Notes: generated by a model not told the origin, from the sequence alone. Positions 4,590-20,244 are shown, counted from the first letter of the stretch. The stretch: DNA of 64,000 nt from a virus (IMGVR_UViG_3300005614_000005:29168-93167); one strand, 5' to 3'. Numbers and translations: made by a program.

Positions 4590-5458
4590 GCGAAGATCAC
4601 TCCTCGGGACTCTCCCGTTTCTTCACCCAGGCCTCCAAGCTACCGCTCCTCACCGCCACCCAAGAGGTCGAGCTAGCGGAACGTCGTGACAAGGGCGACA
4701 AGCGCGCCGAACAGAAGCTCGTGGAACACAACATCCGCCTCGCGATCTCCATCGCGAAGCACTGGCGGAACCGCGGGCTCCCGCTCGAGGACCTCGTGCA
4801 AGAGGGGATGCTTGGACTCCACCGCGCCGCCACCAAGTTTGACCCGAGCAAGGGCAACCGCTTCTCCACCTACGCGAGTTGGTGGGTCACCCACTTCGTC
4901 CAACGCGCCGTGCAGAACACAGGGCAGACGATCCGCACACCCGGTCACGTCACTGCGCGGCGCCTGACTCTCGAAAACCACCTGATGGAGTTTCCCGACA
5001 CGTCGCACGAGGAGCTCGCGGTGATCGCGAAGTGCACGGTCGATGAGGTGCAGGAGGCGCTCGACGCGGGACGCATCTCAGCGTCGCTCGACTCACTACT
5101 GGACGACTCGCTCTCCGCGCACGAGATCCTCGCCGACCCAAACGCGGTGCGACCCGACGAGATCGTGGTTCAGGACCGTCGGGTGCGTGACGCGCTCGGT
5201 AAGCTCGGTGAGTTGGAACGGCGCGTCCTTGAACTTCGCTTTGGCTTCGACGGCCCGGTTCGCAAGCGCGCGGACGTGGCGGAGATTCTCGAGGTCAGCC
5301 AGCGCTCCGTTCAGCACGCGCAGAAGGTCGCACTCCTACGGCTGCGCGAGCTTCTCCACGACGAGCGAATGACCCCGATCACCAGCGCCGCGCTGCGCGC
5401 AGCCGCGCTGGACAAGACCGAGCCAATTTGCTCCCGACCGGAACCCGCACCATGCTGA
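4586..5458 (+). CDS. Sigma-70 family RNA polymerase sigma factor (regions 1.2-4)
   Basis: LPLLTATQEVELA; NIRLAISIAK; DLVQEGMLGLHRAATKFDPSKGNRFSTYASWW; region 4 ERRVLELRFGF plus HTH. Confidence 0.95.
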   Translation: MSEDHSSGLSRFFTQASKLPLLTATQEVELAERRDKGDKRAEQKLVEHNIRLAISIAKHWRNRGLPLEDLVQEGMLGLHRAATKFDPSKGNRFSTYASWWVTHFVQRAVQNTGQTIRTPGHVTARRLTLENHLMEFPDTSHEELAVIAKCTVDEVQEALDAGRISASLDSLLDDSLSAHEILADPNAVRPDEIVVQDRRVRDALGKLGELERRVLELRFGFDGPVRKRADVAEILEVSQRSVQHAQKVALLRLRELLHDERMTPITSAALRAAALDKTEPICSRPEPAPC

Positions 5459-6381
5459 TCATCATCGAGGGACTTGACCGTACCGGAAAGTCAACGCTCG
5501 CGGGCTTCATCGCGATGAAAAACAAGCCAACGGCGTTGCTCCACTTCAGCAAGCCCGAGAAGCACCCACTCTTCGAGTACGTCGAGCCGCTCCTCGCGTA
5601 CGACCCGTGCGCACCCGGGAACGTGGTCCTCGACCGCGGCCACCTGGGTGAGAGCGTTTGGCCGAGCGTGTTCGGGCGGGGGTCAGAGCTTGACGAGCCG
5701 ACGCGGCGTTGGATCGAGCTCTTCCTGCTGTCGCGCGGCGCCGTACTCGTCCACGCGAAACGCGACCTGCAGGAGCTGATCGACGCTTGCGCGGCTGACG
5801 ACGAGCCAATCCAGGGCGAGCAGATCGTGGACGCAAACGCACACTTCCGCGTGGCGCTCTCCGAATCGGTCCTGCCCCAGTTTCCCTTCTGCCACTCATC
5901 ACCCGACCGTGAACTGCAGATCCTCGACATCCTGGCCCAGGGGATGCTCGACCAGATGCGCGCCGCGCTGATCACGCAGGTCACCTACGAGTGGATCGGC
6001 AACCCCCGCCCACACACCCTCCTCGTGGGGGACCAGGGTAACCTCGGTCCCGGCCGCCGTGCTGACTGGCCGCTCCCGTTCGTGCCGTTCGGCGGCACGT
6101 CGGGCCACTTCCTCTTCGATGAGTTGGGGATCGGCGACCGGTGGAGGCACGTCGCGGTCGTGAACTCGCGGCGGCCAGACGGCGCCGTCGAGGACCTGCC
6201 TCGGCTTCACGCGTTGATGGGCTACCCTCGGGTCGTGACCCTCGGCGAGAAGGCGCACCACGTCGCGTCAGACCTCGGTGTCGAGCACGCGCAGGTGCCC
6301 CACCCGCAGTACGTGCGCCGCTTTGAGCGCCGGCGCGGTCGTGGCTACTACGCGGGGCTCATCTTGGAGGCAACATCGTGA
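5452..6381 (+). CDS. Deoxynucleotide monophosphate (thymidylate-type) kinase fused to a UDG-like domain
   Basis: N-terminal MLIIIEGLDRTGKST and VVLDR. C-terminal LLVGDQGN...PFVPFGGTSGHFL...VVTLGEKA...HPQY follow the UDG-superfamily motif order. Confidence 0.75.
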   Translation: MLIIIEGLDRTGKSTLAGFIAMKNKPTALLHFSKPEKHPLFEYVEPLLAYDPCAPGNVVLDRGHLGESVWPSVFGRGSELDEPTRRWIELFLLSRGAVLVHAKRDLQELIDACAADDEPIQGEQIVDANAHFRVALSESVLPQFPFCHSSPDRELQILDILAQGMLDQMRAALITQVTYEWIGNPRPHTLLVGDQGNLGPGRRADWPLPFVPFGGTSGHFLFDELGIGDRWRHVAVVNSRRPDGAVEDLPRLHALMGYPRVVTLGEKAHHVASDLGVEHAQVPHPQYVRRFERRRGRGYYAGLILEATS

Positions 6382-7220
6382 ACATCGAAATCGCAGACCT
6401 GCGGGGCGGCTACATCACCCTCGTGGAAGCAATCCAGCAGCACGGCAAGCCCGTCGCGCCGCGCGGGATGCCGACGCTCGAGCTCCTGAACGCGACGGTC
6501 ACACTGCACGACCCGAGTGACGCGATGCCCGTCGGGATTGGGAGGAAACCGAACCTCGCGATCGGCGCGGCCGAGGCGCTTCAGCTCATCGGCGGGTTCA
6601 GCGACCCCGAGATGATGGCGTCGATCACCAAGAACTTCGAACGCTTCTTCGACGGCGGCGTGCTCTCCGGCGCCTACGGTCCACGTATCCGGACCCAGCT
6701 CGAGCACGTGGTCGAGCGCCTCAAGCAGGACCCCGACACCCGCCAGGCCATCGCGGTCATCTGGGATCCACTCCACGACGGGATCGGGTCGGTGCCTCGT
6801 GACCTGCCCTGCACCCTCGTGCTGCACTTCGTGATCCGCGACGGGAAGCTCTCGCTCTGCACCACGATGCGCAGTAACGACGTGTGGTGGGGTGTCGGAT
6901 ACGACTTCTTCCAGTTCACCCAGCTCCAACTCTCGGTGGCACGGATCTTGAAAGTCAAGGCTGGCCCCTACTACCACCACGCCACCTCGCTGCACATGTA
7001 CGAGCGCGACTTCCCCGCTGCCGAGGAGCTTCACCAGCCCGAGTCACGCTCGGCGCCCGATCCGCGTCCACGCGGCCTGAAAGCGTCGTCCGTCGCGGAA
7101 CTGCAAGAGAACGCGCGCCGGATCTGGAACCTGGAGTCGGTAATCGGCGAGGGCTTCTTGGAGCACTGGTACCGCGAGCAGCTCCGGCCCCACGTGCGTG
7201 TGAGTCGTGTGCAAGCCTAA
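6378..7220 (+). CDS. Thymidylate synthase-family enzyme, probable dCMP hydroxymethylase/methylase
   Basis: AYGPRI, DPDTRQA, catalytic PC. MRSNDVWWGVGYD has Asp at the E. coli ThyA Asn177 position, as in T4 gp42. Also SLHMYE. Confidence 0.85.
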   Translation: MNIEIADLRGGYITLVEAIQQHGKPVAPRGMPTLELLNATVTLHDPSDAMPVGIGRKPNLAIGAAEALQLIGGFSDPEMMASITKNFERFFDGGVLSGAYGPRIRTQLEHVVERLKQDPDTRQAIAVIWDPLHDGIGSVPRDLPCTLVLHFVIRDGKLSLCTTMRSNDVWWGVGYDFFQFTQLQLSVARILKVKAGPYYHHATSLHMYERDFPAAEELHQPESRSAPDPRPRGLKASSVAELQENARRIWNLESVIGEGFLEHWYREQLRPHVRVSRVQA

Positions 7221-7539
7221 CGTTCACGGCGAGTGGAAGATGCGCACCGAGGCGGGTCGCGAGACATGTAGGTGTTGCACGTACTGCGGCGGCATCCACC
7301 CTGAGGACCTCGTCACCTTGCTCAACGAAGGCGTGCGTCTCCAGAACACGGATTGGAAGTACGGTTGGCCGCACAAGTTCTACGTGATCGGTCCCGACGG
7401 TAGCTGGCTCGGCAAGTTCTACACGACGCACATGCAGGAGTCCTGCGTGACCGACGAGATCCGCGAGCGCGTGCAGCGCGCCACCGGTATCCTCTACCGC
7501 GTCCACGACGGGCACCTGCACTACTGCTGCGTAGGGTAA
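7207..7539 (+). CDS. Hypothetical Cys/His-containing protein
   Basis: Translationally coupled ORF containing CTYCGGIHP and WKYGWPHKFY. Confidence 0.6.
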   Translation: MCKPNVHGEWKMRTEAGRETCRCCTYCGGIHPEDLVTLLNEGVRLQNTDWKYGWPHKFYVIGPDGSWLGKFYTTHMQESCVTDEIRERVQRATGILYRVHDGHLHYCCVG

Positions 7540-9287
7540 TGGGCGACCTCGCGGACGTCCAGCTTACGTTCGTCGAGACGCTGGACGACCTCGACAACTT
7601 CCGCGCGTGGCTCGGCCAACGGCGCGAGTGGCTCGGCGCCGACATCGAGACGACCGGCCTGAACTGCGGACGTGACAAGGTCCGCCTCATGCAGTTCGGT
7701 GACCTCGACCAGGGGTGGGCGATTCCGTGGGAGGACTACCGCGGCGCGATCAAGGACCTCCTGCCCCGGTATAAGGGCCGGATCGTTTTCCACAACGCCA
7801 TCTTCGACACGAAGTTCCTCAAGCGGGAGGGCGTTCACATCCCGCAGGAGTGGTGCCACGACACGATGGTCATGTGTCACCTCCTCGACCCGCGCACCAG
7901 CATCGGCCTCAAGAGCGCGGCCGCGCGGTACGTGGACCGACGCGCGTGGATCGGTAAGGACGCGCTGAGCGAAGCCTTCCGCCACGGGAAATGGGACTGG
8001 GCGACAGTCCCCGTTGACCATCCCTCCTACTGGCTCTACTCCGCGCTCGACACCGTCCTGACCGCGCACCTCGCCGCGGCCATCTGGCCCAAGGTCGAGC
8101 CCTTCCGCAAGGTGTACGAGGTCGAGATGGCGTGCATCCACGTACTTCGCGACGCGGGGCTGACCGGCGTTCGGATCGACATGCCGTACGTCGAAGAGAA
8201 GCGTGTCGAGCTTTTGCTCGAGCTGGAGCAGCTCTCGGCGCAGATCCCGTGCGAACCGTCCAAGGACGCGCAGGTCGTGAAGATGTTGCAGGAACGCGGC
8301 GCCGTACTCACCCACAAGACCAAGTCGGGCGCCATCTCCGTGGACGACGAAGCACTCGCCGAGGTGGAGCCGTCCTTCCCCGACATCGTCAAGCCGCTCC
8401 GCGAGTGGCGGACCAAGTCACGACTCGTGTCGTCGTACCTCGACAACATGCTCTCGATGAACGTGGACGGAATCCTGCACCCGTCGGTCAAGCCGCTCGG
8501 CGCGCGAACTGCGCGCATGTCAGTGACCGAGCCCGCACTCCAGACGCTGCCCCGTGGTCGCACGATCCGCGACGCATTCATCTCGCGTGAGGGCCAGACG
8601 CTGATCCTCGCGGATTACGAGCAGGCCGAGCTTCGGGTGCTGGCGAGCTTCGCGCACGAGACGTCGATGATCGAGGCGTTCATGCGCGGCGAGGACCTGC
8701 ACCGGTGGGTCGCCTCGCAGGCGTACCAGAAGACGACCGAGGAAGTCACCAAGCCCGAGCGGCAGGTGTCGAAGAACACGCAGTTCGCGCGGGTCTACGG
8801 CGCCGGCAACGCGAAGATCGCGCTCACCGCTGGCGTGCCGGTTGCCGTTATCGACCAGTTTGTCATGCGGTACAACCAGCTCTTCCCGGGCATCCCGGAA
8901 TTCACAAACGCAACGATCCGCGAAGTGCTCAGCACGCAGTTCAACGGCGAGAGTAAGTGCGGGTACGTCGAGACGATCCTCGGCCGCCGGCTCCCCGTCG
9001 AGCACAACAAGTCATACGTCGGGGTCAACTACAAGGTCCAGTGTTCGGCGACCGCCGACCTGCTCAAGTTGAAGCTCGTGGAGCTCGACGCGGCGGGGCT
9101 CGGCGAGTTCATCCGCCTTCCAGTCCACGACGAGATCATGTTTGAGGTCCCAGACGACCAGCTCGATGAAGTCGAGGAGGTCGTGCGCCGCGTGATGCCT
9201 GAGACCAAGCTCTTCGAGTGCCCGATCACGGTGGATGTAGAGCGCACGAAGTGCTGGGGCCACAAGTACGGCTGGGCTGAGAATTGA
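7539..9287 (+). CDS. polA: Family A DNA polymerase with 3'-5' exonuclease (no 5'-3' exonuclease)
   Basis: ExoI DIETTGL, ExoII FHNAIFD, ExoIII YSALD; motif A DYEQAELR, motif B RQVSKNTQFARVYG, motif C VHDEI. Confidence 0.97.
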   Translation: MGDLADVQLTFVETLDDLDNFRAWLGQRREWLGADIETTGLNCGRDKVRLMQFGDLDQGWAIPWEDYRGAIKDLLPRYKGRIVFHNAIFDTKFLKREGVHIPQEWCHDTMVMCHLLDPRTSIGLKSAAARYVDRRAWIGKDALSEAFRHGKWDWATVPVDHPSYWLYSALDTVLTAHLAAAIWPKVEPFRKVYEVEMACIHVLRDAGLTGVRIDMPYVEEKRVELLLELEQLSAQIPCEPSKDAQVVKMLQERGAVLTHKTKSGAISVDDEALAEVEPSFPDIVKPLREWRTKSRLVSSYLDNMLSMNVDGILHPSVKPLGARTARMSVTEPALQTLPRGRTIRDAFISREGQTLILADYEQAELRVLASFAHETSMIEAFMRGEDLHRWVASQAYQKTTEEVTKPERQVSKNTQFARVYGAGNAKIALTAGVPVAVIDQFVMRYNQLFPGIPEFTNATIREVLSTQFNGESKCGYVETILGRRLPVEHNKSYVGVNYKVQCSATADLLKLKLVELDAAGLGEFIRLPVHDEIMFEVPDDQLDEVEEVVRRVMPETKLFECPITVDVERTKCWGHKYGWAEN

Positions 9288-9664
9288 GCAAGAACCGCCG
9301 CAGTTACGTCCACATCTTCTTCGCCCACAACGGTCCGGGACCGTACGAGTGCTTCTTCTGTCATAAGCCCGTCACTTTCGATGACGTCAACATTCATCAC
9401 AAGGATGAAGACCCCGAGAATAACGATCCAGCGAACTTGAAGGCCTCACACCGCGGATGCCACAACAGTTTTCATAACAAGGGTCACACGTGGAATCGTG
9501 GTAAGCGATGGAATGCAGAGCAGCGAGCACGCCACTCTGCGTTGATGCGAAAACGATACGAGGATCCAGAGTATCGAGCACGACAAGCTGCGACACAGAA
9601 CGCGCGTCCCCGTGATGCGAAGGGTCGTCTTATGCCAGGAGCAGCGTGCGCGTCCTCGCGATAG
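9284..9664 (+). CDS. HNH homing endonuclease with NUMOD3-like tail
   Basis: CFFC...IHHKDEDPENNDPANL...CHNSFH; locally lower GC. Confidence 0.85.
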   Translation: MSKNRRSYVHIFFAHNGPGPYECFFCHKPVTFDDVNIHHKDEDPENNDPANLKASHRGCHNSFHNKGHTWNRGKRWNAEQRARHSALMRKRYEDPEYRARQAATQNARPRDAKGRLMPGAACASSR

Positions 9665-10101
9665 ATCCGGGCGGCAACACGGGCCTCGCGCTCTGGAATG
9701 ACGGGGCGTGGTGGGCGTGGGCTGAGCCAGCGGAGCAAGCGCTCGTTACGGTGCACAACGCCCTCAATGACGGCGACCTCAACCAGCTCGTGTCAGAGTC
9801 GTTCATCATCTCGACAGCGACCGCCAAGAAGAGTCAGGACGGTCTCGTGTCCATCGAGATGATCGGGGTCATGCGGTACCTCTCGCGCGTGTACAACGTT
9901 CCCTTTGAGACGCAGACGCCCTCCGACGCGAAGAGCTTCGCGACCGACGAAAAGCTCAAGGCGTGGAAGTGGTGGACGCGCGGTGTAGATCACCCGCGCG
10001 ATGCCTCGCGGCACCTGATGACCTGGCTCTGCAAGCACGGCTACATCGACCTCACCGAGCTTCGACACCGTCTGGATTCCGCGAGCGGCGGCGCGAGCTG
10101 A
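9646..10101 (+). CDS. RuvC-like Holliday junction resolvase
   Basis: MRVLAIDPGGNTGLA...VSESF...HPRDA. Confidence 0.8.
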   Translation: MRVLAIDPGGNTGLALWNDGAWWAWAEPAEQALVTVHNALNDGDLNQLVSESFIISTATAKKSQDGLVSIEMIGVMRYLSRVYNVPFETQTPSDAKSFATDEKLKAWKWWTRGVDHPRDASRHLMTWLCKHGYIDLTELRHRLDSASGGAS

Positions 10102-10156
10102 GTATGGTCCGATCCGTGCCCAAGCCCTCGCCGTCCACCGTCCTAGGAGACGCGAC

Positions 10157-11932
10157 GTGCCGTATGTAGAGCGTTGGGGCGACGACCGGATCGTCATCCA
10201 CTCCGAGTATCGCGAACGTGAACTTGTGAAGCAGGTGCCCGGCGCGAAGTGGGACGACGCCACGAAAGTGTGGTGGTGTCCGTTGTCGTGGGCCGCGTGC
10301 ATGCAGCTTCGCGGCGTGTTCGGCGACCTACTTCAGATCGGGGAGCAGCTCGTCACGTGGGCGCAGGGCGAGCTCGACGGCCGCGTGTCGCCGTGTCTCG
10401 TCCTGCGCGAAGCTGAGGACGCTGAGCTGCCCGCGGGCGTAGTGCCCGCCACGCTTCCGAAAACTGGCGACACGTTCCGCGGGAAACTCGTGGAGGCGGA
10501 TTGGGATCTTGAGCCGCGGCAGCGCGCCGGCGTGCGGTTTCTCGCCACCGCGCGCCGCGCAGCGCTCTGTGACGGAATGGGTTCCGGCAAGACGGTGCAG
10601 ACGATCATCGCGCTCGAGATGCTCGCCGCCGAAGGGAAGGACCCGTACCCGGCGGTCGTTGTCTGCCCGAACTCGATGAAGGCCACGTGGTGGGAGGAGT
10701 TCGACCTCTGGGCGCCACATCGCAAGGTGACCGTCATTCGCGGTGGCGCCGCCGCGCGCCGCAAGCTCCTCGCCGAGCCCGCCGACGTGTACGTGTTCAA
10801 CTGGGAGGGGCTCCGCAGCCACACCCGCCTCGCGGGCTACGGGTTCATCCGCCTCAGCGAAGACGAGAAAACGGACAAGGAGCTCAACCTCATGCCGCTC
10901 CGTTCGTTCGTCGCTGACGAGGCGCACCGCGCGAAGGACCCTAAATCGAAGCAGACCCGCGCCGCGTGGGCCATCGCGCGGAAGTGCGAGTTCCGCTTCG
11001 CGCTGACCGGCACCCCGCTCGCGAACTCGCCCGAGGACACCTGGGCAATCATGCACATGCTCGAACCCCGCGAGTGGCCGTCACGCACGCAGTTCGTGGA
11101 CCGCTACGCGTTGCAGTCGTGGAGCAACTTCGGGTTCATGCAAGTGACGGGGATCCGCGGCGAGAACCGCGACGAGTTCCTGCGAATCCTCGATCCGCGC
11201 TTCCTCCGGCGTCCGACGAAGATCGTCGTGCCCGACCTGCTCGACAAGCTACCTCCGCAGGTGCGTCACGTCGAACTGGTGCCGAAGCAGCGCAAGGCCT
11301 ATGAACAACTTCGCAAGGAGCTTCTCGCCGAGCTTGACTCCGGCGTCCTGATGGCCACCAACCCGCTGACACGCATGACGCGACTCATTCAGCTCGCGGC
11401 CGCGTACGGAGAGGTCGAGAACGGGGTGGACATGAAGCTCTCCGAGCCGAGCGCGAAGCTCGACGCGCTCGATGAGTTCTTGGAGGACGTCGGACCCGAA
11501 GAACAGGTCGTCGTCTTCGCCGAGTCGCGGCAGCTCATCGAACTCGCGGCCAAGCGCCTCGAGAAGCACAAGGTTCCGTTCGGCCTGATCACCGGCGCGC
11601 AGCAGGACTTCGAGCGTCAGCGATCCGTCCAAGACTTCCAGGCGGGCAACCTCAGGGTCATTCTCGCCACGCTCGGCGCCGGCGGCGAGGGGTTGACCCT
11701 GACAGCCGCGCGGCACGTCGTCTTCCTGCAGAGGTCGTTCTCGTTGGTGAAGAACAGGCAGGCCGAGGACCGAGTCTACCGCAAGGGGCAGACCCGTGAG
11801 GTCCAGCGTACCGACATCGTCGCCGTCAACACCATCGAGGAGCACGTCCTCCTCGTCGGCGAGGACAAGGAGGAACGTCTCGAGGAAATCTGCCGCGATG
11901 AGGAGGTGCTTCGCAGATGGCTTACCAAGTAG
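10157..11932 (+). CDS. SNF2-family helicase with N-terminal HARP-like domain
   Basis: DGMGSGKT, DEAH, LTGTP, GEGLTL, QAEDRVYRKGQ. Confidence 0.95.
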   Translation: MPYVERWGDDRIVIHSEYRERELVKQVPGAKWDDATKVWWCPLSWAACMQLRGVFGDLLQIGEQLVTWAQGELDGRVSPCLVLREAEDAELPAGVVPATLPKTGDTFRGKLVEADWDLEPRQRAGVRFLATARRAALCDGMGSGKTVQTIIALEMLAAEGKDPYPAVVVCPNSMKATWWEEFDLWAPHRKVTVIRGGAAARRKLLAEPADVYVFNWEGLRSHTRLAGYGFIRLSEDEKTDKELNLMPLRSFVADEAHRAKDPKSKQTRAAWAIARKCEFRFALTGTPLANSPEDTWAIMHMLEPREWPSRTQFVDRYALQSWSNFGFMQVTGIRGENRDEFLRILDPRFLRRPTKIVVPDLLDKLPPQVRHVELVPKQRKAYEQLRKELLAELDSGVLMATNPLTRMTRLIQLAAAYGEVENGVDMKLSEPSAKLDALDEFLEDVGPEEQVVVFAESRQLIELAAKRLEKHKVPFGLITGAQQDFERQRSVQDFQAGNLRVILATLGAGGEGLTLTAARHVVFLQRSFSLVKNRQAEDRVYRKGQTREVQRTDIVAVNTIEEHVLLVGEDKEERLEEICRDEEVLRRWLTK

Positions 11933-12558
11933 GTCCGGTCGCACACAACGCGCACCGTCGCTCGCGGAAGCCGAAGGTCGGCGTCGACATCGACGGAGTC
12001 CTGTACCCATTCGACCTCGCGGCACGGACGCTGTTGAAGTTGCGCGGCGTGGACGTAACCGTAGCGGATGACGCACAGTATTGGAATCACACCGCGGAGC
12101 TCGTTGGTCACGAGGCGTGGGAGTGGATCTGGGGCCCCGGCCGCCGACAGGTCTTCGAGGCGGCGCCTCCGTACCCCGGCGCGATCAAGGCCATGCGCCG
12201 TTTGGAACAGGACGTGCGGATCGTGTACGTTACCCACCGCCCACTCGACGTGGCGCACGTCACGCTGCGCTGGCTCGCCTACCACAAGCTCAACCCCCAC
12301 GCCGTCATCCACGCATCCGGCGAGGAGAAGTCGCAGTACGCGACCGACTGCATCGCCTTCATCGAGGACCGCGCCGAAAACGCCCGCGAGATCGCAGACG
12401 CCAGCGACGCAACCGTCTGGGTCCCGTGCCGGACGTGGAACTCGGACGTGGGTATCCTCCCTGAGGATGCAGTACGTCCCAACCTACGAACATTCAATGA
12501 CTGGAAGGAGGTGACGGAGTGGATCAAACAAGCAGTCCAGACGGAAGCGACATCCTGA
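11917..12558 (+). CDS. HAD-superfamily 5'(3')-nucleotidase (NT5C-like)
   Basis: VGVDIDGVL, PYPGA, YVTHR, FIEDR, WN. Confidence 0.85.
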   Translation: MAYQVGPVAHNAHRRSRKPKVGVDIDGVLYPFDLAARTLLKLRGVDVTVADDAQYWNHTAELVGHEAWEWIWGPGRRQVFEAAPPYPGAIKAMRRLEQDVRIVYVTHRPLDVAHVTLRWLAYHKLNPHAVIHASGEEKSQYATDCIAFIEDRAENAREIADASDATVWVPCRTWNSDVGILPEDAVRPNLRTFNDWKEVTEWIKQAVQTEATS

Positions 12559-12821
12559 GCGAGGCGTACAAGCTCATCCGCGGTGAGCGGTTGCAGCACT
12601 ACGGCCCCCCGATCAAGAACTTCGAGCGCATCGCGAAGGGGTGGACCGCCTACCTGGGCGACCGCTTGAAGGTTGACCTGACGGTCAACGACGTGTGCGC
12701 GATGATGGTCATCCTCAAGCAGATGCGCATGGCGGAGGGGTACCACCGCGACTCGGCGACCGATACCGCCGGATACGCAGCGCTGCAGGAAATCCTCGCC
12801 GAGGGAGTGGAGCTGACGTGA
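12519..12821 (+). CDS. DUF6378-like protein (often found near nucleotide-metabolism genes)
   Basis: GERLQHYGPPIKNFERIAKGW...MMVILKQMR...HRDSATDTAGYA. Confidence 0.75.
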   Translation: MDQTSSPDGSDILSEAYKLIRGERLQHYGPPIKNFERIAKGWTAYLGDRLKVDLTVNDVCAMMVILKQMRMAEGYHRDSATDTAGYAALQEILAEGVELT

Positions 12822-13051
12822 GAATGACGGTGACAGACGACGAGGTGACGGTTCACGTCTCCCGTCGAAACCTGCTCACCCTCTTGCACAAGCTCGAGAT
12901 GGCGGACTCGAAGCGCACCCTGTCCCGCCGTCCACACGACGGCGGGTCGCGTATCTTGACCCTCGTCGCCGACGAAGACGACACCCACTACGGCGACCGT
13001 GTGCCAGGCGCCGTCCACCCACTAACCGAGGCTGCGATCCATGGCTCCTGA
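12818..13051 (+). CDS. Hypothetical protein
   Basis: Coupled ORF containing VSRRNLLTLLHKL...HYGDRVPGAVHP. Confidence 0.55.
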   Translation: MRMTVTDDEVTVHVSRRNLLTLLHKLEMADSKRTLSRRPHDGGSRILTLVADEDDTHYGDRVPGAVHPLTEAAIHGS

Positions 13052-13694
13052 GTTTCAAGGCTTTCCGAAAATCCCCCGCCTCCACCGTGGCCTCACGATC
13101 ACCGAGAAGATCGACGGCACGAACGCGGCGGTAGGGGTAGAAAAGCTGGACAAGGTGCAGGAGGGCACACACCCGCTTGGAACTCTCGTCACCCTCGCGC
13201 GTCCCTACCCGGAGGAGGGCGAGATAGACTCGTACCTCGTCTACGCGCAGTCGCGGACGCGGATCATCGTTCCCGGCGACGACAACTACGGGTTCGCGTT
13301 GTGGGTTTCGCAACACGCAACGGAGCTCGCGGAGCTCGGCCCGGGCGTGCACTTCGGCGAGTGGTGGGGCGTGGGGATCAACCGCGCCTACGACCTCCAC
13401 GAGCGCCGCTTCTCCCTCTTCAACACCTCCCGCTGGAGCGAGGAGCGCCCCGCGTGCTGTGGCGTCGTGCCGGTGCTCGGCGAACTCGACAACTTCCACT
13501 CGCCCACCGTCGAAGAGATCGGCCTCGCCCTCTCGCAGAGTGGGTCCGTCGCCGCACCTGGGTTCAAGCGTCCCGAGGGCGTCGTGGTCTTCCACAAGGC
13601 CGCGAACTTCTGCTTCAAGTGGACCTTCAACGGCGACGGCCACAAGTCTGAGAGCAGCAAGCGCACTCGGCGCGGAAACCGCGGCGGGTCGTGA
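13041..13694 (+). CDS. RNA ligase (Rnl2-like adenylyltransferase domain)
   Basis: Motif I TEKIDGTN; QSRTR; FGEWWG; EGVVV; K. Confidence 0.85.
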   Translation: MAPEFQGFPKIPRLHRGLTITEKIDGTNAAVGVEKLDKVQEGTHPLGTLVTLARPYPEEGEIDSYLVYAQSRTRIIVPGDDNYGFALWVSQHATELAELGPGVHFGEWWGVGINRAYDLHERRFSLFNTSRWSEERPACCGVVPVLGELDNFHSPTVEEIGLALSQSGSVAAPGFKRPEGVVVFHKAANFCFKWTFNGDGHKSESSKRTRRGNRGGS

Positions 13695-13945
13695 ACGTCC
13701 ACGACCTCATCTTCGCGGTCGGGTCGGGCATCTTCGCGGTTTCGCTCGTACCCGCCGTCGTCAAGCGGACACAGATGCCGCTCTCGTCGTCGCTCCCGAC
13801 GGCCATCGTCCTGTCGGCGTTCCTCGCGAACTACGTGTGGATGGGCTTTGCGTGGTCGGCGGTGACGACGGCCTGCACGGCGCTCTGCTGGTGGGCGCTC
13901 GTGGTCAGACGCGACAGTCGCGCACTCCCGATCAAGCGCTCATGA
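13691..13945 (+). CDS. Small 3-TM membrane protein (PQ-loop/SemiSWEET-like size)
   Basis: 84 aa with three hydrophobic segments. Confidence 0.5.
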   Translation: MNVHDLIFAVGSGIFAVSLVPAVVKRTQMPLSSSLPTAIVLSAFLANYVWMGFAWSAVTTACTALCWWALVVRRDSRALPIKRS

Positions 13946-14859
13946 CGAAGCTCCTCACCAACAGTGAGATGAAGCTCTGGCGCCGGTGCAAGCGGCACTG
14001 GTGGCTTAGCCACTACCGCGGCCTGCGCCGCGCGGACGTCGAGTTCAACAAGCCACTCAGCATCGGCAGCCGCGTACACGAGTGCCTGGAGGCCCTGTAC
14101 GGCGTAGACAAACGCGGCGACCCACTCGCCAAGCTGCGTGAAACGGTCGACATGGACCTCGCGAAGTTTCCCATGCACGCCACCGACATCGCCAAGGAGG
14201 CCGACCTCTGTCAAGCCATGCTGGAAGGTTACCTGCAGTGGCTCGAGGAAGAAGGTTGCGACATCGGGTTCCGCGTGGTTGCGAGCGAGGGTCGGCGCGA
14301 AGCCCCACTGATCGACGGCGTGAACCTGCTCGCGAAGCTCGACGCCCGCGTGGTCCACGAGGAGCGTGCCGACATTCGGTTGGCCCTAGAGCACAAGACG
14401 GTGGGCGACCTGTCAACACCGCTCACGCTGTTGCAAATCGACACCCAGCTCTTGACCGAGCATCTCGTTGAGTTCCTCGCGTTGCGTGAGGAAGGTCGCG
14501 AGAGCGAGGCTGCGCAGGGCGTGCTCTACAACATGCTGCGCAAGGTCAAGCGAACCGCTCGCGCGAAGCCACCGTTCTACGGTCGCGAGGAGGTCAACCA
14601 CAACGTGCACGAGCTCCGTGTACATTGGTTGCACGTGCAACGAATCGCGGAAGAGATCTTGCAGGCGGAACGCGAACTCGCGGAAGGGAAGCAGCACCAT
14701 GAGGTGGTGTACCCGAACCCTACGAGGGACTGCCGATGGGATTGTGAGTTCTTTCATTTGTGCCCACTTCTCAACGATGGCTCTGACTATGAGGCTCTCA
14801 TCGCAGCAGATTACGTTGTAGGTAATCCTCTTGAGCGGTATGCTGACGCTCCAGAGTGA
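13942..14859 (+). CDS. Cas4/AddB-like PD-(D/E)XK exonuclease
   Basis: N-terminal C (WRRCKRHW), GSRVHE, KLD, EHKT, Q and C-terminal CRWDC...C (Fe-S type). Start is ATG 13942. Confidence 0.85.
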   Translation: MTKLLTNSEMKLWRRCKRHWWLSHYRGLRRADVEFNKPLSIGSRVHECLEALYGVDKRGDPLAKLRETVDMDLAKFPMHATDIAKEADLCQAMLEGYLQWLEEEGCDIGFRVVASEGRREAPLIDGVNLLAKLDARVVHEERADIRLALEHKTVGDLSTPLTLLQIDTQLLTEHLVEFLALREEGRESEAAQGVLYNMLRKVKRTARAKPPFYGREEVNHNVHELRVHWLHVQRIAEEILQAERELAEGKQHHEVVYPNPTRDCRWDCEFFHLCPLLNDGSDYEALIAADYVVGNPLERYADAPE

Positions 14860-14933
14860 AGACGTACACGCTTTCTTAGCATTCTGACGAATGCTGCCGA
14901 TGTTGCCACAACCGACGGGTAGAGTTCGTCAAG

Positions 14934-15632
14934 TTGAGACCGACTCTCTCCATTCTGATCCACGGGGACGCCGGCGTCGGTAAGAGCCGACTCGCAGGTA
15001 CCGGCCCCACGCCGCTTCTCATCCTCGACGCCGAGGGTAGGGCGCGGTACCTTCCCGGCCGCAAGGTCGTGTGGAACCCGTACACGGAGCAGCCGCCCGT
15101 CGCCGACGGGTCGTGGGACATCTGCATCGTCGTCATCTCGAAGTTCGATGACCTGTCCCAGGTGTTCCAGTGGTTGCAGTCGGGCCAGCACCCGTTCGTC
15201 TCCGTCGCGCTCGACTCGTTGATGGAGGCGCAGAAGCGTCTCATCGACCAGGTCGCCGGCATGGAGCAGCTCCAGACACAAGACTGGGGGGTTGTCCTTC
15301 GTAGACTTGAGGCACTCGTACGGTCGTACCGCGACCTGACGATCGTTGACAGCAATCCACTCGACTGCGCGATCTTTACGGTTGGCACGCAGGTCAGCGA
15401 CACCGGTCGGTACGAACCACTTCTTCAGGGCGCGCTTCGCCGGACCCTGCCCTACTACATGGACACGGTCGGCTACCTTTACGTGACGCACGAAGTTGAG
15501 GGTCAACCTACAAGGAACCTGCTCGTGCAGCCAACGCAGACCATCGTAGCAAAGGACGGAACCGATCGTCTAGGCGGTCCGGTGATCCAGAATCCGAACC
15601 TGTCACAACTATTCAAGGAGCTCACCGGATGA
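14934..15632 (+). CDS. Sak4-like AAA recombinase/ATPase
   Basis: HGDAGVGKS, LDAEG, LDSL, AKD. Confidence 0.85.
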   Translation: MRPTLSILIHGDAGVGKSRLAGTGPTPLLILDAEGRARYLPGRKVVWNPYTEQPPVADGSWDICIVVISKFDDLSQVFQWLQSGQHPFVSVALDSLMEAQKRLIDQVAGMEQLQTQDWGVVLRRLEALVRSYRDLTIVDSNPLDCAIFTVGTQVSDTGRYEPLLQGALRRTLPYYMDTVGYLYVTHEVEGQPTRNLLVQPTQTIVAKDGTDRLGGPVIQNPNLSQLFKELTG

Positions 15633-16318
15633 CAACGGTAAACCTGCAAGACGCATTCAAGCAGTACCAGAAGGAAGACGAGGTGACCGTCCTGGAGGAG
15701 GGCGAGTACACGCTCGAGGTGATCCGCTGCGCCGTTCGCGGCCAGGACAAGAACGCGCTGATGCCCGTCTACCGGGTAATCGGCGGTCCCTACGCTGGCA
15801 AGACCGTCATGGCCGGCCAGCTCACCCTCACCGAGAACTCGCGGTCGATCTTCTTCCGCAACCTCAAGGGCTTCGGGATCGAGGAAGCCTTCATCATGCA
15901 GTCCGCTGGCGGGCTGGACGACATCGCCAAAGCGCTCATCGGGCGCGTCGTCAAGATGAAGGTCCAGAAGCGCCAGTGGCAGGGCAACGACCGCAACCAG
16001 TTCCCCATTGGCGGGGTCATGCTGGTCTCGCTTCCGTCACAGCCGGGCGCGCCGCAGGCCGCCGCGCAGCAGGCCGCTCCGGTCGCTCCGCAGGTCGCCC
16101 AGCCGCCAGCTGCTCCCGCAGTTCAGCAGCAGGCACCTCCGCCGGTGCAGGAGCAGGCGCCGCCGCCACCCGCCGCGCCGGTGCAGCAGCAAGCTCCCCC
16201 GCCTGCGGCTCCCGCTGCGACCGCACAGCAGACCCCACCCCCGCCCCCGAACCCCGCCGCGGCTCCCCCTCCGCCGCCACCCCCCGCAGGCGGCGCTCCG
16301 ACGGGCACCCCCTTCTAG
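15629..16318 (+). CDS. ssDNA-binding protein (DUF669-like) with Pro/Ala/Gln-rich tail
   Basis: EGEYTLEV N-terminus, C-terminal PF, and position after Sak4. Confidence 0.7.
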   Translation: MTTVNLQDAFKQYQKEDEVTVLEEGEYTLEVIRCAVRGQDKNALMPVYRVIGGPYAGKTVMAGQLTLTENSRSIFFRNLKGFGIEEAFIMQSAGGLDDIAKALIGRVVKMKVQKRQWQGNDRNQFPIGGVMLVSLPSQPGAPQAAAQQAAPVAPQVAQPPAAPAVQQQAPPPVQEQAPPPPAAPVQQQAPPPAAPAATAQQTPPPPPNPAAAPPPPPPPAGGAPTGTPF

Positions 16319-16324
16319 GCCGCC

Positions 16325-16723
16325 ATGCGCGACCTGCTCGCACGGCAGCGGAGGCTTCAAGTCGAAGCCTTCGCTGTCGACCCGCACGAGTTGACTGGTG
16401 AGGACCGCGTCGAGTACGTTCGGATGAACGTCCTTGCGGTCGTAGACGAGGCGATGGAGATGCTCCACCACGTCAACGGCTGGAAGAACTGGCAGACCGA
16501 GCGCTCGCGCGCCGGCGAGATCGCGGATCTTCAAGAGTACATCGGCGAGGGCGTCGATCTCCTGCACTTTGTGGCCAATTTGCTGAACGTTGCAGGAGTC
16601 GATGACCAAGAACTCGACGCGCTCTTCGCGAAAAAGCAGCGCGTGAACGCACAGCGGCAGGCCCTCGGGTACGAGGGTCACGGCGACGACTTCGCCGCGG
16701 CGCACCCGCAGGTGATGGCGTGA
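16325..16723 (+). CDS. All-alpha dNTP pyrophosphatase (dimeric dUTPase/dCTPase/MazG-like)
   Basis: DEAMEM...WKNW...EGVDLLHF...KQRVNAQRQ. Confidence 0.8.
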   Translation: MRDLLARQRRLQVEAFAVDPHELTGEDRVEYVRMNVLAVVDEAMEMLHHVNGWKNWQTERSRAGEIADLQEYIGEGVDLLHFVANLLNVAGVDDQELDALFAKKQRVNAQRQALGYEGHGDDFAAAHPQVMA

Positions 16724-17157
16724 AGCTCGCGGCATCCGAGCGCCCGTGCAGCGGCTGCGCGCACTCCGCGAGTGGGATTCCGTATCCTGGGCATCCGTCG
16801 GGTGAGCGACCTTGCTGCTTCTGCGTCCGCAACCCCGAACTGGCGCGCACCAGCGACGTCTGCCGCGACAGCGACGGTAACGGGGTCTGGTACGACGGCA
16901 AGACACCCGCGTACAAGACGCCGATGGACAACTACATCGCGACCGACCGTCTCCAGCAAGAGCGGCTCTTCGCCGTGCTTGGTGCCATCGAGCGTGGAGA
17001 ACTGACGGTCAAGCCGCGGCAAACACTCGCTGAGTTCTACGGGGTAGATTGTGATGTAGGTATGGGCGACCCCAAGACCATGTGTTGTGAGGGCGGCCCG
17101 TTTCCCGGCGGCCACAGCGGTGGGTGCATTCTTCTCGTGGGGGTTTCCATATCATGA
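16720..17157 (+). CDS. Hypothetical Cys-rich protein
   Basis: CSGC...PCCFC; translationally coupled on both sides. Confidence 0.55.
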   Translation: MKLAASERPCSGCAHSASGIPYPGHPSGERPCCFCVRNPELARTSDVCRDSDGNGVWYDGKTPAYKTPMDNYIATDRLQQERLFAVLGAIERGELTVKPRQTLAEFYGVDCDVGMGDPKTMCCEGGPFPGGHSGGCILLVGVSIS

Positions 17158-18434
17158 CTCATCCGTTCGTTGACGTGCAAGGTCTCGCCGGCGCCTGGAC
17201 GCTTGGCACGGTGCAGGCGGGCTTCGAGTTGAAGCACCGCGTGTCGCTGCCCGGCGGCTTCGGCGACGCCGCCATCGACGCGAACCGGCACCTCGTCGGC
17301 GACGGGTGGGCGCAGGAGACCGGCGACCCGGTCGAAGCCTGGACGCCTCAGGAGGGCGTCGCCTACATCTGCGGCACGCCGCCGTGCTCGGGCTTCTCGC
17401 TACTGAACAGCGCGAAGGGATCCAACGCGCGCGGTCCCGAGTCCAGCATCAACAACTGCATGAAGGAGCTCGTCAAGTACGCCGGTCAGTGCACCGGCTC
17501 CGACGGGCGTCCCGGCCCTCAGATCGTCAGCTTCGAGAGCGTGCAGGGCGCCTACACGCAGGGCCGCGGGCTCATGCAGTACCTGCGCGACATGCTCAAC
17601 GAGACCTCCGGCTCGCACTACAGCCTGTCTCACGTCCTGATGTCGGGCGCGTCCGTGGGCAACGCGCAGATGCGGCACCGCTTCTACGTCGTCTTCCACC
17701 GGATCCCGTTCGGCGTGGACCAGCCTCAGGAACGGAAGGTCGTCACCTACGCGGACGCCATCGAGGATCTGATCGGCGGCACACTCCAGTGGGAGCCGCA
17801 GCCGTACCCCACGCACGACACGCTACCCGACGGCAGGCCCGACCTCTCGCCGTACGCCACCCCACTTCGCTCGTCGTCTGGCAACTTCGACGCGCACGTG
17901 ACCATCGACCACGGCCGCTCCGCCTCCGTCATCAAAGAGGTGTGGGACGTCTGGAAGCCAGGTCAGAGCCTGCCCGAAGCGCTGCTCGCCGCGGGCCTCC
18001 GTCCTCCGACGCTCGAAAAAAGCTTCGTGGAGAACTTCGAAGGGACCGGCAAGCCCGGCTACAAGGGCTGGAGCTGGCCCGTCAAGGTGCGCCCGGACCG
18101 ACCGGGGTACGTGCTGACGGGCGGGGGTATCCACGGGTTCGTCCACTGGGCCGAGCCTCGTCTCCTCTCAGCGCGCGAGTGCTCGCGTCTGATGGGCTAC
18201 CCTGACGACTGGACCTGGCCTACCAACTCCGTCAACCAGGCAAGCGCCTGGATCGGCAAGTGCTGCCCCGTCACGTCAGGACGATGGATCTCATCGTTCG
18301 TACGGCGTGCGCTGGACGGCGATCCCGCGTCACCGCTCGAGCAGATCGGGCCGCGTGAGTTCTATTACAACTGCACCCTGGCCTACAAGAAGTGGCCTGG
18401 TGGCGCCGTCCCCAAGCGGGTAAGATCGAGGTAG
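17154..18434 (+). CDS. Divergent C5-cytosine DNA methyltransferase-like protein
   Basis: Motif IV GTPPCSGFS, VI FESV, VIII QMRHR, IX-X RECSRLMGYPDDW...IGKCCP; motif I is atypical (DVQGLAGAW). Confidence 0.85.
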   Translation: MTHPFVDVQGLAGAWTLGTVQAGFELKHRVSLPGGFGDAAIDANRHLVGDGWAQETGDPVEAWTPQEGVAYICGTPPCSGFSLLNSAKGSNARGPESSINNCMKELVKYAGQCTGSDGRPGPQIVSFESVQGAYTQGRGLMQYLRDMLNETSGSHYSLSHVLMSGASVGNAQMRHRFYVVFHRIPFGVDQPQERKVVTYADAIEDLIGGTLQWEPQPYPTHDTLPDGRPDLSPYATPLRSSSGNFDAHVTIDHGRSASVIKEVWDVWKPGQSLPEALLAAGLRPPTLEKSFVENFEGTGKPGYKGWSWPVKVRPDRPGYVLTGGGIHGFVHWAEPRLLSARECSRLMGYPDDWTWPTNSVNQASAWIGKCCPVTSGRWISSFVRRALDGDPASPLEQIGPREFYYNCTLAYKKWPGGAVPKRVRSR

Positions 18435-19728: not shown

Positions 19729-20241
19729 GTGCCCGAAGACGCCACCGCGCTGACCGCGGACCAGCGGGTCGCTGCCCTCCTAGACGCCCAGGGGTTCGAA
19801 GCTAAGGAGATCGTCAGGGCGACGGGCTTCCACGCGAAGGTCGTCGCGAAGTGGCGGCGGGAAGACGCCTACAAGGAGGAGGTCGAGCGACTGCGCGAGC
19901 TCGGCATGACCGAGCTGCGCGACACGATCCGCAAGGTCACCCGCAGCCTGCTCGACGCGGCGGACCTCGCCGTCGCCGCGCTGACCAAGGCGCTCGCAGC
20001 AGAAAAGGACGACGGCAGCCCCGACTGGCACGTCATCCAGCGCGCGGCGGAGACGATCATGTCCGCGTCCAACCCGATCATCTCGCCGAAGCAGGTCAAG
20101 GGTGGGGGCGAGGGTGGCGGCAGCGCCGTGCCCTTCGCCAGCATCACGGTGAATTTGGGCGAGGCCGGGCAGGTGGTCGAGGACGTGACCGACGCGGACG
20201 TGGTTGATGAGGACGCGCAGCGGTACATCACGGCGGGCTAG
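19729..20241 (+). CDS. Terminase small subunit (putative)
   Basis: N-terminal HTH and helical core, directly upstream of TerL. Confidence 0.65.
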   Translation: MPEDATALTADQRVAALLDAQGFEAKEIVRATGFHAKVVAKWRREDAYKEEVERLRELGMTELRDTIRKVTRSLLDAADLAVAALTKALAAEKDDGSPDWHVIQRAAETIMSASNPIISPKQVKGGGEGGGSAVPFASITVNLGEAGQVVEDVTDADVVDEDAQRYITAG

Positions 20242-20244
20242 CTC

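Follow-up and report, generated by a model that had tools for sequence, protein, structure and literature searches.

The hydroxymethylcytosine (hmC) pathway of phage T4 comprises the gp56 dCTPase, the gp42 dCMP hydroxymethylase, the gp1 dNMP kinase and the alpha- and beta-glucosyltransferases. Residue rules are available for enzymes of the thymidylate synthase (TS) family: in ThyA numbering, N177D marks dCMP as the substrate, L143D/E a hydroxymethyl product, the acidic residue at 143 admitting water, and D169N the 5-hydroxy product (PMC13326640). The modification of RB69 and DLP3 follows the last route, through 5-hydroxy-dCMP with arabinosylation (PMC13326640). In the MetaGPA study, metagenome contigs with and without modified cytosine are told apart by positions 177 and 147, and TS with Asp177 is found there with a PRA-PH pyrophosphatase, a dCMP deaminase and a 5hmC carbamoyltransferase (PMC8670742). 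Finally, of 37 restriction enzymes tried on the DNA of Stenotrophomonas phage AXL3, a phage that encodes its own ThyX besides an Asp-type TS, only the 2 recognising AATT and TTAA cut it, and none with G/C in its site did (PMC7504290).

The phage considered here is uncultured and has a 93 kb genome of 65% GC; its host is probably an actinobacterium. We analysed a window of 64 kb of that genome, and positions are those of the window unless genome positions are named. Like T4, this phage has gp42 and gp56 homologues, a dNMP kinase beside the hydroxymethylase and a beta-glucosyltransferase-like candidate. It differs from T4 in that its kinase is YorR/thymidylate-kinase-like, not gp1-like, and fused to a uracil-DNA glycosylase (UDG)-like domain, in its family A polymerase, C5-methyltransferase-like gene and 65% GC content, and in lacking both a dCMP deaminase and a TS of its own. 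We consider a T4-type 5hmC pathway probable in this phage, and glycosylation probably follows it; for the full scheme, in which some or all cytosine becomes 5-hydroxymethylcytosine by a T4-type pre-replicative route with a probable sugar step, we estimate a probability of roughly 0.65. Since a T4-like hmC gene set is accompanied by a sugar-adding candidate just outside the window, a known anti-restriction strategy in variant form is most likely, rather than a new base. From homologies, active-site residues, synteny and domain folds, which are what we observe, we infer all substrates, how far cytosine is replaced and the sugar step, in the following order of events. The gp56-like pyrophosphatase would act first, hydrolysing dCTP (and dUTP) to the monophosphate, and the TS homologue would then place a hydroxymethyl group from methylene-tetrahydrofolate on C5 of dCMP. 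The thymidylate-kinase-like domain of the fusion would phosphorylate hm-dCMP, host NDP kinase would carry the product on to hm-dCTP, and the co-transcribed family A polymerase would incorporate it. After replication, a GT-B protein resembling T4 beta-glucosyltransferase (genome 20223-21557) would probably glycosylate the hydroxymethyl group. A pre-replicative cytosine C5 pathway had been proposed in the initial annotation, and that proposal stands as far as the cytosine-specific TS residues, the neighbouring dNMP kinase and the gp56-homologous pyrophosphatase are concerned; its inclusion of a HAD and a DUF6378 gene does not (below).

The core of the locus is compact. The TS homologue (6378-7220, + strand), a predicted dCMP hydroxymethylase (5hm-dCMP synthase), lies beside a dNMP kinase, the upstream gene at 5452-6381 carrying a thymidylate-kinase P-loop, and is separated by one small ORF (7207-7539, +) from a family A DNA polymerase with a 3'-5' exonuclease (7539-9287, +; Pfam DNA_pol_A 5e-67, exo1 1e-14), an arrangement that the initial annotation had described correctly. 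The starts and stops of the four genes overlap in an operon-like manner, and the polymerase, translationally coupled to the genes upstream, presumably draws on the modified dNTP. About 50 contigs of uncultured phages (IMG/VR) and phage DSL-LC01 share the kinase-TS-PolA core, with PolA in syntenic position in 47 of 50 loci. Among cultured phages, Gordonia phage Sixama has an Asp-type TS, a deaminase and a stand-alone kinase that carries no UDG-like domain (hhalign 98%). AXL3 gp27-gp31, and likewise PW916, show an NTP pyrophosphatase, a kinase-UDG-like fusion and an Asp-type TS (37% identity) in the same order as here; AXL3 differs in adding a dCMP deaminase, ThyX and a class I methyltransferase whose homologue is absent here, and the two fusion proteins share only about 25% identity.

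The N-terminal part of the fusion (residues 1-172; 5452-5967, +) is a thymidylate-kinase/YorR-like P-loop dNMP kinase by profile, AF2 and VIA comparisons. In profile comparison its family scores 3e-20 against YorR of Bacillus subtilis SPbeta and about 3e-4 against TMP kinases; the AF2 model has a pLDDT of 95 and gives VIA Z scores of 16.1 against 2axp and 12-14 against TMP kinases. No homology beyond the P-loop was seen to the T4 gp1 dNMP kinase (hhalign probability 17%, P-loop only) or to the 5-hmU DNA kinase PaMx11 gp49, with which only 24 P-loop columns align. That the kinase is thymidylate-kinase-like and not gp1-like is a point against the 5hmC scheme; hm-dCMP is its predicted substrate. 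The C-terminal part (residues about 169-309; 5956-6381, +) resembles family-4 UDG, with VIA Z scores of 11.8 against Thermotoga maritima UDG (1l9g; rmsd 2.8 over 133 aa), 11.5 against UdgX and 10.1 against the UDG domain of phiLo PolA, and a Foldseek match to 1vk2 at 5.7e-4. Motif A, the Phe/Asn pocket and an HPS-type motif B are present among its conserved motifs (G-[DE], PFxP..TSG, N238, HPQ), and a 73-sequence alignment shows no conserved Cys in place of the four that hold the family-4 Fe-S cluster. The fusion is itself conserved beside the TS gene in about 50 loci. 5-hmU DNA kinases are known to prime thymidine hypermodification, and there is a slim chance that the fusion acts on hmC already in DNA, for example by phosphorylating or exchanging a flipped base, with a Dcm-like helper in some genomes. 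If it does, a lineage that includes the cultured phage AXL3 carries an undescribed cytosine hypermodification.

Is the final base glycosylated? The initial annotation had seen no glycosyltransferase, which is true of the window alone, where there is no Pfam glycosyltransferase; its suggestion of an unusual final base on that ground does not stand, because the window covers only 64 kb of 93 kb and a candidate transferase lies outside. The candidate is a 444-aa GT-B-like protein, weakly similar to T4 beta-glucosyltransferase, whose gene (genome positions 20223-21557) is 7.6 kb before the start of the window. In five related loci a gene lies embedded in the module, and an HMM of that gene matches the candidate at 4e-104; orthologues of the candidate in related phages are located within the module. 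When a 44-sequence profile was compared with the PDB the sole match was T4 beta-glucosyltransferase, at a borderline E of 0.047 over 75-85 C-terminal columns, and hhalign of the family against that enzyme gave 62% probability (E 7e-5). ESM Atlas returned a feature score of 0.96, and its TM values to clusters of PF09198 and of GT-B were 0.54-0.69, for a model whose pLDDT was only 0.56. Searched with the PF09198 model up to E 10, the genome gives no hit, and the protein is not matched by Pfam or PHROG models. These comparisons hint that it could be the glycosyltransferase for hmC. A carbamoyltransferase like that of the MetaGPA contigs did not appear in Pfam scans of this phage's large predicted proteins.

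A minor but real possibility is that 5hmC is made and the final base is something other than glycosylated hmC, the UDG-like domain and/or a Dcm-like enzyme producing an undescribed derivative while the GT-B-like protein is otherwise employed. The conservation of the fusion fits this, as does the limited spread of GT-like genes, which only 23 of the 50 loci have (18 belonging to cluster 10 and 5 to cluster 20); moreover, the modification of AXL3 was never chemically identified (PMC7504290), and distant Dcm-like homologues abut the kinase/TS module in contigs L042 and L038. Those two are, however, the only ones among the 50 related loci with a Dcm-like gene there. In addition, no uracil-pocket motif of ordinary family-4 enzymes is missing from the UDG-like domain, for which a role in repair is explanation enough, and the stand-alone kinase of Sixama means that the fusion is unnecessary for the pathway.

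Glycosylated or not, 5hmC depends on the specificity of the TS homologue. This 280-aa protein begins at a GTG that overlaps the upstream stop, matches Pfam Thymidylat_synt (PF00303) at 6.8e-20 and includes RSNDVWWGVGYD. Its final Asp aligns with ThyA Asn177, both against a solved TS and against E. coli ThyA, as the initial annotation had stated. The key codons are those of D142 (ThyA L143; 6801-6803), catalytic C145 (6810-6812; aligned at position 146), N167-D168 (ThyA C168-D169; 6876-6881, with D168 at 6879-6881) and D176 (ThyA N177; GAC, 6903-6905); T146 corresponds to ThyA H147 and M164 to Q165. Among 120 close homologues, 119 retain Asp177, as does each TS gene that adjoins a homologous kinase in the IMG/VR loci we examined; chance does not account for it. 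In our alignment table the protein agrees with T4 gp42 at 13 of 14 active-site positions (Y94, D143, C146, T147, M165, R166, S167, N168, D169, G173, D177, H207 and Y209), whereas the dUMP hydroxymethylases SPO1 gp29 and PaMx11 gp51 have N147/N165/N177, E. coli ThyA has L143/H147/Q165/N177 and the RB69 5-hydroxy-dCMP synthase has N169/V173/F209. The best PDB match is the Streptomyces CMP 5-hydroxymethylase MilA (1e-24; the best TS reaches only 2e-13), which also has Asp at 143 and 177 (PMC13326640). MilA differs in preferring a ribonucleotide and serving antibiotic synthesis, while here the gene is coupled with those of a dNMP kinase and a DNA polymerase. A quick IQ-TREE phylogeny with weak deep nodes places the protein within a large clade of metagenome sequences that includes DSL-LC01 and Sixama, separate from T4 gp42; gp42, RB69 gp48 and ThyA form long branches. 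By residue rules learned mainly from T4-like phages, the protein would be a hydroxymethylase.

The initial annotation had left 5hm-dCTP and 5m-dCTP side by side, and the residues favour 5-hydroxymethyl, since L143D correlates with a hydroxymethyl and not a methyl product. An Xp12-type dCMP methyltransferase, making 5-methyl-dCMP so that 5mC replaces C, is improbable: by the residue rule a bulky hydrophobic residue would be expected at 143 where Asp is present, positions 147, 165 and 168 agree with gp42 and not with ThyA, and the best solved relative is a hydroxymethylase. Nevertheless, Asn177 to Asp alone converts ThyA into a dCMP methylase in the mutational work, as far as it is related in PMC8670742, and the phage encodes a protein that shows 5mC could serve it. 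That protein (17124-18434, +; PF00145 4.8e-16) resembles a C5 cytosine DNA-methyltransferase, with TPPCSGFS (the catalytic PC), ESV (ENV) and QMRHR (QxRxR) motifs and an atypical AdoMet motif I, the canonical FxGxG being GLAGAW here and YGGS in two relatives. DNA with all its C replaced by hmC would offer it no substrate, which counts against the 5hmC scheme. The gene had gone unmentioned in the initial annotation, within whose range it lies.

The small ORF would encode a 110-aa Cys-rich protein with no Pfam or PHROG match, and sits where a dCMP deaminase lies in 33 of 50 full-length related loci. Deaminase would matter if hm-dCMP were only an intermediate, deaminated to hm-dUMP and passed by the thymidylate-kinase-like enzyme into 5hmU replacing T. 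The position of deaminase after the TS gene in most relatives, the kind of kinase and the uracil-glycosylase-like domain fused to it would suit such a route, but a search of this genome found no dCMP deaminase, T4 encodes one too, alongside gp42, and AXL3 DNA is cut at AATT/TTAA and never at sites containing G/C, including G+C-only sites (PMC7504290). We therefore regard 5hmU as quite improbable.

The enzyme is highly unlikely to be a 5-hydroxy-dCMP synthase of the flavin-dependent RB69/DLP3 type. The RB69/DLP3 system (PMC13326640) resembles this one in N177D, an acidic 143, a cognate dNMP kinase and, on the scheme proposed here, glycosylation on DNA. It differs in the D169N signature: Asn169, diagnostic of RB69 gp48-type enzymes, is replaced here by the retained Asp (D168), and G173 and Y209 are of the gp42 type and not the RB69 type. 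The absence of D169N leads us to predict hydroxymethylation, not hydroxylation. Hardly credible is an ordinary thymidylate synthase supplying dTMP: a search found no second ThyA or ThyX in this genome, which would suit it, but Asn177, Leu143, His147 and Gln165 of canonical ThyA are all replaced (by D, D, T and M), the Asp is conserved clade-wide and AXL3 has a ThyX in addition (PMC7504290).

For the hydroxymethylation pathway, the candidate enzyme for clearing dCTP/dUTP is an all-alpha NTP pyrophosphohydrolase (16325-16723, +; Pfam dUTPase_2 2e-9), homologous to the T4 gp56 dCTPase/dUTPase over its full length (pairwise BLASTP: 28% identity, 137 aa, E 1e-9). It bears the motif NGWKNWQ and runs in the direction of the other genes, in line with the WKNW type assigned initially, and in relatives of this phage, as in the MetaGPA cytosine-modified contigs, an Asp-type TS is accompanied by a deaminase and an all-alpha pyrophosphatase (PMC8670742). 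Its nearest cultured homologues, in Gordonia and Microbacterium phages and DSL-LC01, are annotated MazG/dUTPase; the family is annotated dUTPase in 63 Microbacterium phage records, which count against a firm dCTP specificity for the candidate, and Microbacterium is not among the ten commonest genera of TS matches.

If the 5hmC reading is correct, T4-style pre-replicative cytosine replacement reaches a large group of high-GC phages, most of them uncultured, that are organised around a family A polymerase; the open-access library that we searched has no paper pairing 'dCMP hydroxymethylase' with 'actinobacteriophage'. It would also supply concrete genes to account for the so far unexplained resistance of AXL3 to restriction, and AXL3, PW916 and Gordonia phage Sixama are cultured phages in which the prediction is testable. 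The kinase-UDG fusion and a glycosyltransferase family missed by Pfam would be new reagents and markers for modified phage genomes.

Two further genes had been counted into the pathway. A HAD/NT5C-like phosphatase (11917-12558, +; Pfam NT5C 6e-6) and a DUF6378 protein (12519-12821, +; Pfam 1.3e-23; no relative in the PDB) do run in the same direction as the core, as had been noted, but they are carried by 0 and 1 of 81 related loci, respectively, and are not supported as members. The HAD protein also matches a PHROG polynucleotide kinase, and its gene may equally be assigned to an RNA-repair set.

We consider it fairly probable (roughly 0.65) that the present phage carries a T4-type pre-replicative 5hmC pathway, one that is probably finished by glycosylation. 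The IMG/VR virus record is 93,167 bp long with 110-bp terminal repeats and is rated complete; bases 29168–93167 form the window, whose GC content is about 65%. All of the genes and the motif described in the initial annotation are present there. From 2079 to about 22800 the replication and nucleotide-function genes lie on the + strand throughout. The first group of this cluster comprises primase/DUF927, a sigma-70 factor, the kinase fusion, the thymidylate synthase (TS) homologue, a 110-aa ORF, PolA and an HNH nuclease; RuvC-like, SNF2 helicase, HAD/NT5C, DUF6378, RNA ligase and PD-(D/E)XK nuclease genes form the second; and the third holds an AAA_24 ATPase, DUF669, an all-alpha pyrophosphatase, a 145-aa ORF, a C5-methyltransferase-like protein, a metallophosphatase and the large terminase. 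Nothing among 50,697 phage records matched 5428–9287 in a megablast search.

For the TS homologue (6378–7220, + strand), a predicted dCMP hydroxymethylase is the reading with the best support. Its 280-aa product contains the motif RSNDVWWGVGYD, and the last Asp of that motif aligns with Asn177 of E. coli ThyA (whose numbering is used here) both in HMMER alignments with solved TS structures and in a MAFFT alignment with ThyA itself, as the initial annotation had claimed; of 120 close homologues in the databases, 119 retain this Asp177. We compared 14 positions lining the ThyA active site, chosen after PMC13326640, and the TS homologue is identical to the dCMP hydroxymethylase T4 gp42 at 13 of them (Y94, D143, C146, T147, M165, R166, S167, N168, D169, G173, D177, H207 and Y209). 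The dUMP hydroxymethylases SPO1 gp29 and PaMx11 gp51 have exactly three differing positions (N147, N165 and N177), ThyA has L143, H147, Q165, C168 and N177 at the same sites, and RB69 gp48, shown experimentally to be a 5-hydroxy-dCMP synthase, has E143, Q168, N169, V173 and F209. N177D gives a preference for dCMP, an acidic residue at 143 accompanies hydroxymethyl rather than methyl products, and D169N is a mark of the 5-hydroxy-dCMP synthases (PMC13326640); in the MetaGPA study residues 177 and 147 were the best two for separating cytosine-modified from unmodified metagenome contigs (PMC8670742). The best solved relative of the TS homologue is the CMP hydroxymethylase MilA (1e-24; best TS, 2e-13). 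In a quick maximum-likelihood tree it falls into a large clade of metagenome sequences to which phage DSL-LC01 and Gordonia phage Sixama also belong and which is separate from gp42, but gp42, RB69 gp48 and ThyA are long branches in this tree and its deep nodes are weak.

The start of the TS homologue is overlapped by the end of the kinase fusion gene (5452–6381, + strand), which begins at ATG 5452, matching the start of its relatives, and is directly preceded in this genome by the sigma-70 factor gene (4586–5458). An AlphaFold model of the fusion built on a 73-sequence alignment (pLDDT 95) has two domains: residues 1–172 resemble SPbeta YorR (at Z 16.1, with a profile E of 3e-20) and TMP kinases (at Z 12–14), and residues ~169–309 resemble family-4 UDGs (at Z 11.8, with an rmsd of 2.8 across 133 residues), UdgX (at Z 11.5) and a phage PolA in its UDG domain (at Z 10.1). 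The UDG-like domain keeps the pocket motifs, and the Fe-S cysteines are not conserved in it. The present phage differs from T4 in having a non-orthologous kinase that is fused to a UDG-like domain. Two other identities for the kinase were rejected, that of a 5-hmU DNA kinase, because alignment with PaMx11 gp49 is limited to the P-loop, and that of a gp1-like enzyme, because there is no similarity to T4 gp1 beyond the P-loop; no relation of the fusion to PaMx11 gp50 was found.

About 80 database proteins have the fusion architecture. Among 50 IMG/VR loci with a full-length fusion its neighbours include the TS homologue (47), PolA (47), SNF2 helicase (44), dCMP deaminase (33), PD-(D/E)XK (32), RuvC-like (31), AAA_24 (27) and DUF669 (21), and every adjacent TS gene read by alignment carries cytosine-type residues. 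Neither a dCMP deaminase nor ThyX was found in the present genome; the slot that the deaminase occupies in 33 of the 50 loci, between the TS homologue and PolA, holds a Cys/His-rich 110-aa ORF (7207–7539) with no family match. In 27 of these loci the kinase fusion is immediately preceded by a conserved ~158-aa gene (L030:6801-7277, in a related phage locus, and 26 others); an HMM search found no homologue of it in the present genome. Two genes that the initial annotation had counted with the pathway are not conserved with this module: the HAD gene accompanies it in 0 and the DUF6378 gene in 1 of 81 related loci; DUF6378 has no informative PDB sequence relative.

The fusion occurs in only two of the 50,697 deposited phage genomes, those of DSL-LC01 and AXL3; PW916 is reported to be about 90% identical to AXL3. 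The AXL3 gene order is NTP pyrophosphatase, fusion, Asp-type TS (D143, D169 and D177) and dCMP deaminase, and AXL3 additionally has its own ThyX, whereas the present genome has neither ThyX nor the deaminase. Only 2 of 37 restriction enzymes cut AXL3 DNA, TasI (AATT) and Tru1I (TTAA), and enzymes with G/C-only sites fail to cut it (PMC7504290); this result is consistent with global modification of cytosine and speaks against one of thymine only. BLASTP found no homologue in the present genome of the AXL3 pyrophosphatase gp30, or of gp31 (L087:2638-3462), a class I SAM methyltransferase whose gene immediately precedes the AXL3 pyrophosphatase-kinase-TS cluster and is also present in PW916. Sixama, a cultured actinophage, has the same kinase domain (hhalign 98%) without its fusion partner, adjoining an Asp-type TS; its gp180–gp175 region (L092:2394-5189) encodes this stand-alone kinase, the TS homologue and a dCMP deaminase, and its records label the first two as ordinary thymidylate kinase and synthase. 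The 5hmC prediction is directly testable in AXL3 and Sixama.

The 132-aa pyrophosphatase (16325–16723, + strand) aligns over its full length with T4 gp56 (28% identity, E 1e-9), and among its nearest homologues from cultured phages are 63 Microbacterium phage records that carry a dUTPase annotation; homology to gp56 is therefore established, and dCTP specificity is a candidate property only. It has no informative PDB sequence relative. Homologues are present in 9 related loci, and 7 have another all-alpha family, PRA-PH; Microbacterium is not among the ten commonest genera in the TS search.

No glycosyltransferase had been visible to the initial annotation. This holds for the window, where Pfam finds none, as it does in the 29 kb upstream, but a candidate lies outside the window at genome 20223–21557 (+ strand; L003:5223-6557 in our numbering of this part of the genome), 7.6 kb before the window start. 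Pfam, PHROG and whole-genome PF09198 and PF13524 searches found no glycosyltransferase, and only HMMs derived from synteny led to the 444-aa candidate. In related loci the slot after DUF669 is occupied by two families that Pfam misses. The first, present in 18 loci and annotated as a glycosyltransferase in DSL-LC01, has no homologue in the present genome by HMM search; the second is present in 5 loci (in L038, a related phage locus, the TS homologue and the deaminase flank it), and its HMM matches the 444-aa protein at 4e-104. A 44-sequence profile of this family retrieved only T4 DNA beta-glucosyltransferase (BGT) from 177,635 PDB sequences (E 0.047, over the C-terminal nucleotide-sugar region), a 6-sequence profile gave only noise, and hhalign with BGT gave 62% probability (E 7e-5). 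The ESM Atlas sets the protein beside PF09198 and GT-B clusters (feature score 0.96, TM 0.54–0.69). It is matched by no Pfam model (PF09198 and PF13524 included) or PHROG, and we therefore regard it as a candidate BGT-like GT-B enzyme rather than a member. The contigs of its homologues have lengths in common with those of the fusion kinase and TS hits, which suggests that these genes are carried together; about 59 homologues are known from metagenomes, all of them without annotation. The stop codon of the 444-aa gene is overlapped by a 172-aa ORF.

The C5-methyltransferase-like protein (17124–18434, + strand) retains the PC, ESV and QxRxR motifs and has an atypical motif I, which in this subfamily is GLAGAW or YGGS, not FxGxG. 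Fully hmC-substituted DNA offers no C5 to methylate, so cytosine replacement may be partial, or other DNA may be the target of this enzyme, or its chemistry may be different. Two related phage loci (L042:5201-6421 and L038:17430-18608) have distant homologues immediately adjacent to the kinase/TS module, and identity among the three members of this divergent subfamily is 23–24%. Between the pyrophosphatase and this gene is a Cys-rich 145-aa ORF (16720–17157) for which neither Pfam nor PHROG gives a match and which has no homologue among the 81 loci.

The HAD/NT5C protein (11917–12558) also matches the PHROG polynucleotide kinase. Possible RNA-repair companions are an RNA ligase (13041–13694), a HAD_SAK_2 domain protein (L002:9289-9750, in locus L002) and, at L003:12209-14311, a LigT 2H-phosphoesterase fused to a MuF-like head protein. 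These four may constitute an RNA-repair gene set, and the HAD gene may belong to it rather than to nucleotide metabolism.
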